Below are positions 1,820-2,705 of a DNA stretch of 64,000 bases, one piece after another. This DNA comes from Bilabrum cf. latius (Eukaryota). A model generated the notes under the pieces. The model worked only from the letters and a program-made list of their open reading frames with translations. It searched no databases and was not told where the DNA came from. How positions within the stretch are numbered: position 1 is the first letter of the stretch; every line of letters begins with the position of its first letter. Location: positions 124,001-188,000 of the forward strand of contig OZ237766.1 in NCBI GenBank assembly GCA_965178125.1. The letters are read 5' to 3'. The translations under genes were made by a program, and so were the position numbers.

Positions 1820-2705
1820 CTTCACGTAGTTGCCCGCGCCGAGCTCACCCACCCATGTCACGCACGGCCCGTCATCCACCTGCGCGGCGATCTTGGTCAG
1901 GATAGGCTCCAGGGCGTCGTACGCCTCCCTGGGCCCGCCAGGCATCAGGGAGGGTCCGTACCTTGCCCCGTCCTCGCCCCCGGACACGCCCATGCCCACG
2001 AAGTTGATGCCCACCTTCGCGAGTTCCTCTCCCCTCCTGAGGGAATGGGGGTACCACTCGTTGCCTCCGTCGATGATGATGTCTCCCTCCTCCATGTGCT
2101 CCTTGAGCAGCGCAATCGTCTTGTCCACGGGGTCGCCCGCCTTGACCAGGATGATGACCCGGCGGGGCTTCTGCAGGGACTTGACGAACTCTCCAACGTC
2201 CTTGTAGCCCACCAGAGGCAGGTCTCCCTCGGCTTTGGCTCGCTCCACGGTCGTGTCCACCTGAGGTTGAGCGAGCGAGGTGGGAAGGGGGAGGCACGGG
2301 ATGATCAAGACACGCCAACAAAAAGAACAAACGTACAAAGACGGAGAGTGCAAGCCTTCAGAGGGAATAGCTACGACACGCCAGCCAGGATCGGCCGCAT
2401 CTTGTCGTCTGGATCGGCACCGTCACACAGAGGCAGTGGTGCAGCTGAAAGCTCGCATGCCCAGCAGGACATTCTATAATCTCGAAACTTATTCTTCGGT
2501 CAATGACGGCAGCACGAGCAGCAATCTCAACTTCTGGGCAACTTCCGGTCGCGCGAACAGTGGGGGATCTCACCTTTGCCGGAGACCGGTTACAAACCGC
2601 GATGGAGAATCCCTTATCAGCAATGTTCAGCGCCAAGTTCTACCCCATGACTGCAAGACCATAAAGTCCAATTACCGGTTGCTTAGCATCGCCTGCAGCT
2701 GCCAT
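890..2705 (-). CDS. PGD: 6-phosphogluconate dehydrogenase, decarboxylating (2 exons: 2705-2574, 2260-890)
   Basis: Exon 1 reads [29 protein letters not shown] with in-frame TAG at 2640-2642. GT-AG intron 2573-2261. Exon 2 has DGGNEWY, GMGVSGGEDGARYGPSLMPGG, YVKMVHNGIEYGDMQLIAE and QAQRDFFGAH. Stop is TGA. Confidence 0.97.

Follow-up and report, generated by a model that had tools for sequence, protein, structure and literature searches.

A nuclear code in which UAG very probably specifies glutamine in a stramenopile related to Cafeteria, as read from a 6-phosphogluconate dehydrogenase gene and its surroundings

Among the nuclear genetic codes in which UAG has become a sense codon, the closest described system to the one considered here is that of Iotanema spirale (Fornicata), in which UAG encodes glutamine (Gln) and UAA and UGA are stops (Panek et al. 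2017, PMC5304391; published codes are given here and below as stated in the excerpts of the cited papers that deal with them). According to the same excerpts, codes with a changed UAG and a retained UAA stop were first documented in 2017, in two organisms known by transcriptomes alone; in the rhizarian exLh, UAG encodes leucine (Leu) and UAA is a stop, and in codes of the table 6 type (ciliates, hexamitin diplomonads and some green algae) both UAA and UAG encode Gln (PMC5304391). UAG-only or split UAA/UAG reassignments are described from phyllopharyngean and other ciliates in excerpts of PMC11687900 and PMC10553269. The 2017 overview of variant nuclear codes, as excerpted, lists fungi, Amoeboaphelidium, oxymonads, Blastocrithidia, ulvophytes, ciliates, exLh and Iotanema, and no stramenopile (PMC5304391). 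Here we analyzed a stretch of 64,000 nucleotides (nt) assigned to Bilabrum cf. latius (contig OZ237766.1, positions 124,001 to 188,000; referred to as the window), in which the gene for 6-phosphogluconate dehydrogenase, decarboxylating (6PGD), a housekeeping enzyme of sugar metabolism, carries an in-frame TAG at the codon for a conserved Gln. In the open-access papers and bioRxiv preprints that we searched, we found no nuclear stop-codon reassignment in stramenopiles, bicosoecids or Bigyra; a report elsewhere or with 2025 data is possible.

The sequence evidence presented below makes it very probable that UAG is a Gln sense codon of the nuclear code, with UAA and UGA as stops, in the species of the window and in a close relative. 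Such a code would resemble that of Iotanema in that UAG is decoupled from UAA and encodes the same amino acid, in that it is recognized by in-frame UAG at conserved Gln positions in transcripts, and in that a tRNA-Gln with anticodon CUA and an altered release factor eRF1 are predicted. Unlike Iotanema, which is a metamonad, the window belongs to a stramenopile, the main stop codon appears to be UGA (14 of 16 frames) rather than UAA, genomic DNA can be consulted, and two species show the trait. The reading shares UAG = Gln with the table 6 type, but TAA does not behave as a sense codon here (0 of 391 in the flanked-stop test described below); it shares with exLh the reassignment of UAG alone, but the conserved sites are Gln rather than Leu; and it resembles the ciliate cases in that UAG is reassigned apart from UAA, although ciliates are a group in which code changes are common. 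NCBI table 15 ('Blepharisma nuclei; some phages: TAG=Q') translates exon 1 of the 6PGD gene without a stop and with Q22, and is the formal description that matches the proposed reading; it does not designate a lineage.

The 6PGD gene of the window and of a sister species

The 6PGD gene consists of two exons on the minus strand, with the following features:
2574..2705, minus strand: 6PGD exon 1, with the start codon ATG at 2705..2703, 44 codons and a G+C content at third codon positions (GC3) of 0.50, ending in phase 0
2640..2642, minus strand: in-frame TAG, codon 22 of 6PGD, at the Gln of the GLAVMGQNL dinucleotide-binding (NADP-binding) motif
2261..2573, minus strand: spliceosomal intron of 6PGD, 313 nt, GT..AG, phase 0
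890..2260, minus strand: 6PGD exon 2 with the stop codon, 456 codons (2260..893) followed by TGA at 892..890

Exon 1 matches positions 2-42 of the Pfam NAD_binding_2 profile (E-value 4.9e-9), and exon 2 matches positions 34-161 of the same profile (E-value 1.5e-30) as well as the 6PGD C-terminal domain over its entire length (profile positions 1-290 of 290, E-value 2.5e-124); on these predicted domains, the gene encodes a full-length 6PGD, in which an N-terminal NAD(P)-binding Rossmann domain precedes the 6PGD C-terminal domain. The C-terminus, with its TGA stop, agrees with those of relatives. The nearest named homologue is the 6PGD of Cafeteria roenbergensis (71% identity; the closest relatives reach 88%), whose N-terminus aligns residue for residue with that of the window gene, and which has a Gln, specified by a normal Gln codon in a gene annotated as full length, opposite the TAG. 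Among the best 120 homologues, 13 are N-terminally short, and of the 107 that cover the motif, 106 have Gln in the TAG column and one has Ala. In P0001, a protein of another close relative, the called ORF begins at the Met that immediately precedes this Gln. The preliminary description of this locus had noticed a TAG at the conserved Gln of the 6PGD motif, in a gene otherwise intact, and had suggested a comparison with homologues; this alignment (codon 22, 2642..2640; Gln in 106 of 107), the 456 open codons of exon 2 and the complete Pfam domains bear it out. The strong codon bias that it ascribed to the gene holds for exon 2 (GC3 0.89; 13 CAG and no TAG) and not for exon 1 (GC3 0.50). Exon 1 of the related gene introduced next (288-419) also looks less GC3-rich than exon 2 of that gene by eye, and the 5' ends of genes may fall in lower-GC promoter-proximal DNA.

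A counterpart of this region from a relative is present on a 4340-nt metagenome contig (L001), whose 6PGD exon 2 is 88% identical to that of the window over 452 residues, and which shares with the window the gene order of convergent CCDC113-like and 6PGD genes. Exon 1 of the L001 gene (288-419) is open and intact, and has CAG at 351-353 opposite the TAG of the window. Conversely, exon 2 of L001 contains two in-frame TAGs, at 2041-2043 and 2164-2166, and the window has CAG (Gln) at both, in the contexts VVERQTAWRR and LTQAQRDFFGAH; among homologues that show the motif, these two columns are Gln in 103 of 109 (His in the other 6) and in 114 of 114, respectively. CAG and TAG are thus exchanged between sister species at conserved Gln columns, and the exchange behaves as a synonymous change. 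In the public protein derived from the L001 gene (P0003), the start is placed at an intronic TTG, and the sequence breaks off exactly at the first in-frame TAG.

We then considered public sequencing runs that match the stretch. Four runs from one study, including X1, hold all of it and are probably the source DNA; three further runs from two other studies and with other organism labels (X5, X6 and X7) hold 74-78% of the sampled words. The contigs of X1, X5, X6 and X7 were compared with positions 1-4210 of the window. X1 (DNA) yields one colinear contig in which the intron is kept and contains no joined form, but X5, X6 and X7 each have one contig that skips exactly 2258-2570 (joint 2257/2571; moving the cut by +3 gives the GT..AG intron) and ends near the ends of the 6PGD gene. 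Contigs of X6 and X7 also skip a second intron, in a neighboring gene:
3164-3385, plus strand: spliceosomal intron, 222 nt, GT..AG

Because introns are skipped exactly, including this second one, we infer that the X5-X7 contigs are transcripts. Record 7 of X5 (896-2257 joined to 2571-2712) and record 10 of X6 (901-2257 joined to 2571-2714) both span the TAG at 2640-2642, each with 0 other letters and 0 gaps, and record 14 of X7 stops at 2614, short of the TAG. Spliced contigs that carry the TAG argue that the mRNA itself carries UAG, and that neither an assembly error nor an unexpressed copy is involved; neither the CAG at 2640-2642 nor the untranscribed copy that had been considered as possible at the outset was borne out, since the contigs from two other studies show TAG in spliced transcript-like sequences that cover 6PGD. 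Codon 22 of 6PGD is the sole TAG checked in this way, and a TAG at 4080 is reached by none of the contigs listed for X1, X5, X6 and X7.

Three explanations of how 6PGD might be made were tried and rejected. RNA editing of UAG to CAG was rejected as the TAG is retained in the transcript contigs; a downstream start was rejected as the first Met beyond codon 22 falls in exon 2, past the Rossmann motif; and pyrrolysine was rejected as the TAG sites correspond to Gln columns and the host is a eukaryote. If UAG is read as Gln, 6PGD would remain intact: the mRNA would be made and spliced, and codon 22 would be decoded as the Gln of a normal GLAVMGQNL motif.

The same contigs give a view of the gene ends. 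The convergent CCDC113-like gene (TAA at 664-666) and 6PGD gene (TGA at 890-892) are separated by 223 nt, and the transcript-like contigs end at 668-754 (CCDC113-like) and 854-901 (6PGD), positions that are contig ends and not mapped transcript ends. The 6PGD contigs start just 7-9 nt upstream of the ATG. Judged from these contig ends, the untranslated regions seem very short.

Behavior of TAG, TGA and TAA across the window

Under the standard code, the longest frames of the window have 1491, 882 and 837 codons. When TAG is taken as a sense codon, the ten longest become 2479, 1836, 1784, 1481, 1259, 1120, 1100, 1027, 981 and 948 codons. In contrast, taking TGA as sense gives longest frames of only 1491, 977 and 920 codons, even though the window has about two TGAs for every TAG, and taking TAA as sense leaves the ten longest frames the same except for the tenth (from 487 to 498 codons), and no frame of at least 500 codons gains. 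We also used a test that is independent of frame definitions, counting those stops that have at least 150 open codons on both sides in the same frame. This flanked-stop test returned 18 of 840 TAGs, 4 of 1447 TGAs and 0 of 391 TAAs; with at least 200 open codons on both sides, the counts were 11, 0 and 0 (Fisher p = 1.4e-6 and 2.8e-6). By both the flanked-stop test and frame lengths, TAA behaves as a sense codon nowhere in this small (64-kb), GC-rich sample in which TAA is rare. A control with the reversed sequence was discarded as meaningless, since reversing changes which triplets are stops.

In 17 frames with a total of 15,834 codons, there are 66 in-frame TAGs, compared with 515 CAG and 126 CAA, so that TAG would account for about 9% of Gln codons. 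TAG is present in 11 of 16 frames, or 12 of 16 genes when 6PGD exon 1 is included, with up to 11 TAGs in one frame. Several of the long frames contain Pfam domains, namely, Methyltransf_24, teneurin-like EGF, AAA_11/AAA_12 helicase, NIPA, CTU2 and CCDC53. The C-termini that can be checked by homology, those of 6PGD and the CCDC113-like protein in both species, end in TGA or TAA: the CCDC113-like gene stops at TAA in the window and at TGA in L001, and 6PGD at TGA in both. UGA (mostly) and UAA would be the codons that terminate genes under the proposed code.

Two places in these frames deserve a separate description. The 1836-codon frame on the minus strand ends in ...DDDDDD-TAG-GAC-TGA (15114..15106), with a TAG two codons ahead of the TGA; this TAG may once have been the stop, with translation now continuing to the TGA. 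At 23581-23613 (minus strand), an AGATAG-type microsatellite places six TAGs in a row in frame; with TAG as Gln, it would encode an (Arg/Lys-Gln) repeat, or it could instead lie in an unrecognized intron.

The alternative that survives best is a dual-meaning code, in which UAG is Gln within genes and a context- or position-dependent stop at some true gene ends, as in those ciliates that have ambiguous codes. Short 3' untranslated regions are a proposed setting for position-dependent termination in excerpts of PMC4967479 and of bioRxiv 2022.04.12.488043, and the 3' ends here look very short (contig ends at 668-754 and 854-901); moreover, the TAG in the DDDDDD-TAG-GAC-TGA end at 15114..15106 could be a real stop. 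However, no homology-defined C-terminus falls at a TAG in the window or in L001 (with only 16 genes sampled), and the contig ends are not mapped poly(A) sites, and we therefore regard a dual meaning as distinctly unlikely. That the clade related to Cafeteria might have an ambiguous code of this kind, with UAG as Gln inside genes and as a stop beside very short 3' ends, is in our estimation an unlikely outcome as well, if a shade less so; if true, UAG would be a position-dependent stop and sense codon outside ciliates and trypanosomatids, and the ambiguous state would have been caught while the new codon is still little used (about 9%) and turns over fast.

Leaky readthrough with an unchanged code, in which the UAG stop is suppressed by the near-cognate tRNA-Gln(CUG), is much harder to accept. 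Near-cognate tRNA-Gln does read UAG in standard-code organisms, according to the excerpts of PMC13192750, and scans of the window and of L001 found no dedicated tRNA. However, with 66 TAGs in 15,834 codons and as many as 11 per frame, partial readthrough would leave almost no full-length product; an essential enzyme and a gene whose GC3 is 0.84 are among those with TAGs; and the turnover of CAG and TAG between sister species at invariant Gln columns looks synonymous. We consider this explanation very improbable.

The amino acid specified by UAG

If UAG is a sense codon, as the stop statistics suggest, other genes with in-frame TAGs should bear on the amino acid that it specifies, and the following sites were compared with homologues:
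7893..7895, minus strand: in-frame TAG at residue 747 of frame 10133..6774 (a Methyltransf_24-domain protein), Gln in the relative's protein P0241
7731..7733, minus strand: in-frame TAG at residue 801 of the same frame, Gln in P0241 and Val in the more distant P0244
7365..7367, minus strand: in-frame TAG at residue 923 of the same frame, with homology on both sides and Glu in P0244
25920-28853, plus strand: gene for an EGF/teneurin-like secreted protein, with GC3 0.84 and TAGs at 26907, 27630, 28584 and 28713 (26907..28715)
10709..10711, plus strand: in-frame TAG in PLAC8 paralogue a, AAG at this place in paralogue b (12123-12785)

In the methyltransferase-domain protein, P0241 shares 70% identity with the window frame over 266 columns, and both TAG sites within its reach (747 and 801) are Gln there. 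The block around residue 747 is otherwise identical (TSGTIXFRTSHQ in the window, where X is the TAG, and TSGSIQFRTSHQ in P0241). P0244 is more distant, with 42% identity to the frame. In public sets, which were searched exhaustively with this frame, the relative's methyltransferase-domain protein (P0241-P0247) appears only as fragments of 81-265 residues, or 508 residues for the more distant P0243; genes of the relative are represented there by pieces that were cut at TAG. Counting this protein together with 6PGD, there are four TAG sites in conserved blocks, three in 6PGD (in two species) and one in the methyltransferase-domain protein, and all four align to Gln. In addition, by a cruder count, Gln occurs within 3 residues of 17 of 60 TAG sites and of 191 of 641 Gln sites, and the corresponding share is 0.158-0.248 for the other 19 residues.

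The remaining genes say less about the identity of the residue. Homology of the EGF gene crosses all four of its TAGs, but in variable columns, which are therefore uninformative on the amino acid. For the five TAG sites of the helicase, a search among shorter proteins returned 5 distant matches (27-32% identity and 8-11% query cover) and no close relative. The tandem PLAC8-family paralogues at 10535-11224 and 12123-12785 (plus strand) are 94% identical over the 141 nt compared; TAG in one and AAG in the other are compatible, on sequence, with Gln/Lys variation or with a nonsense mutation.

The neighboring plus-strand gene with the 222-nt intron includes a long frame (3345-6644) in which there are five in-frame TAGs and a CCDC53 (WASH complex) domain. 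Within this frame, at 4860-4990 (residues ~505-545), there are two related motifs, LLAQIKAAG...LKK and LMA-TAG-VAAAALK, and the TAG of the second (4923) aligns with the Gln of the first. We presume that these motifs resemble WH2-type actin-binding motifs.

Several observations count against reading UAG as Gln. As to expression, X5 and X6 are labeled 'RNA?', which is a guess, X7 is labeled 'probably DNA', and no matching run is recorded as RNA. As to the frames, TGA closes 14 of 16 and TAA the other 2, but the long frames were by definition uninterrupted by TAA or TGA, which makes the lack of these codons inside them, and their presence at the ends, a matter of construction; some TAGs close to a frame start could also precede the true start codon or sit in unrecognized introns. 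As to the amino acid, the Gln identity rests on four conserved sites in two genes, and residues other than Gln face TAG elsewhere: Val (residue 801) and Glu (residue 923) in P0244; S, G, A and R across the four EGF sites in the homologue P0121, which is 48% identical; Lys (AAG) in PLAC8 paralogue b; and, facing one of the L001 TAGs, Arg in the window. A likelihood test based on neighboring residues at the 66 sites put Val first and Gln 5-11 log units behind (in the order Val, Leu, Ile over all 66 sites, and Val, Ile, Leu without the repeat); we judged this method to be too weak at 60-66 sites. Finally, a tRNA scan returned 0 tRNA genes in the 64-kb window and in L001, and an Rfam scan of the window returned 0 matches.

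Some of these points would be accommodated if UAG were a sense codon for a residue other than Gln, such as Glu, Lys, Leu, Tyr or Trp, as in other variant codes. The residues found in relatives at variable columns that face TAG are E, K, V, S, G, A and R, the neighbor-likelihood test preferred V, I and L, and excerpts of PMC5304391 describe UAG = Leu in a rhizarian. On the other hand, the four conserved-block sites are Gln (106 of 107, 103 of 109 and 114 of 114 homologues for 6PGD, and the methyltransferase-domain protein), CAG faces TAG between sister species at all three 6PGD sites, and Gln lies within 3 residues of TAG sites at a frequency nearest to that of Gln sites themselves and higher than for all 19 other residues; we consider another residue very improbable. 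The weakest explanation, that this copy of 6PGD is a pseudogene, a nonsense allele or an assembly error under the standard code, is largely refuted and hardly credible: CAG to TAG needs one C-to-T change, exon 1 is without the codon bias of exon 2 (GC3 0.50 vs 0.89), and a second 6PGD elsewhere in the genome is possible, but three independent data sets have the same letters, the gene is expressed with its intron removed, the rest of it is intact with the relative's exon 1 likewise open, the L001 6PGD has two other in-frame TAGs, and the pattern is window-wide. The initial suggestion that TAG is Gln is therefore backed not only by codon 22 but also by the CAG/TAG exchange between sister species, by a second gene and by the window-wide stop statistics.

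Host lineage, other features of the window and implications

A quick maximum-likelihood tree of 6PGD was built from 65 rows, namely, exon 2 of the window, L001, P0001, P0004-P0061, P0081, P0083, P0090 and P0102; the tree did not include P0002, P0003 or the remaining 55 of P0062-P0120. The window, P0001 and L001 form one clade with a support of 99 in the SH-like approximate likelihood ratio test (SH-aLRT). This clade adjoins the Cafeteria clade (support 86, not starred) and lies apart from the clades with named oomycetes and ochrophytes. On this single-gene tree, the host is a GC-rich stramenopile placed beside Cafeteria, and the window is taken to be nuclear DNA. Since in-frame TAG is used in L001 as well as in the window, and L001 lies outside the group of the window and P0001, we infer that the change of UAG predates the split between L001 and the window. 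The best reading of these sequences is a UAG = Gln code that would be common to a small clade beside Cafeteria, the change having presumably arisen after the split from Cafeteria and before that between the window species and the L001 species.

As for the mechanism, a tRNA-Gln with anticodon CUA, derived from tRNA-Gln(CUG), would be predicted to read UAG and not UAA. In addition, eRF1 may no longer bind UAG well, and changes would be expected in its N-domain. Both expectations follow from the statement, in the excerpts of PMC5304391, that only the anticodon CUA reads UAG without reading UAA; the eRF1 motifs named there as relevant to UAG recognition are GTS, NIKS and YxCxxxF.

Outside the genes discussed above, the window has several other features. 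At 39855-40653 (minus strand), there are 9.2 tandem copies (99%) of an 87-nt unit, encoding a 29-residue repeat, within the 2479-codon frame 38858-46294. A second repeat, at 61196-62128 (minus strand), consists of 2.5 copies of a 378-nt unit (91% matches) that is itself built of diverged 126-nt units; it lies in the TAG-free 882-codon frame 59741-62386 and encodes an ...AAMGYGID... motif, and Pfam returned no family match for this repeat or its frame. The region 53300-59700 has a G+C content of 0.53-0.56, which is lower than that of the rest of the window, and three frames of 241-300 codons within it (53929-54651, 55738-56637 and 56866-57636) had no match in Pfam.

Few eukaryotic lineages are known to have nuclear stop-codon reassignments, and one in a stramenopile would add a new, independent origin within a major supergroup. 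With genomic DNA and at least two species at hand, the predicted tRNA-Gln(CUA) and the eRF1 changes should be readable directly from the assembly. Gene callers run on the standard or the bacterial code would truncate the proteins of this clade, as in P0003 and the fragments of the methyltransferase-domain protein, and annotation, BUSCO-type scores and phylogenomic matrices would be wrong for the clade unless table 15 is applied.

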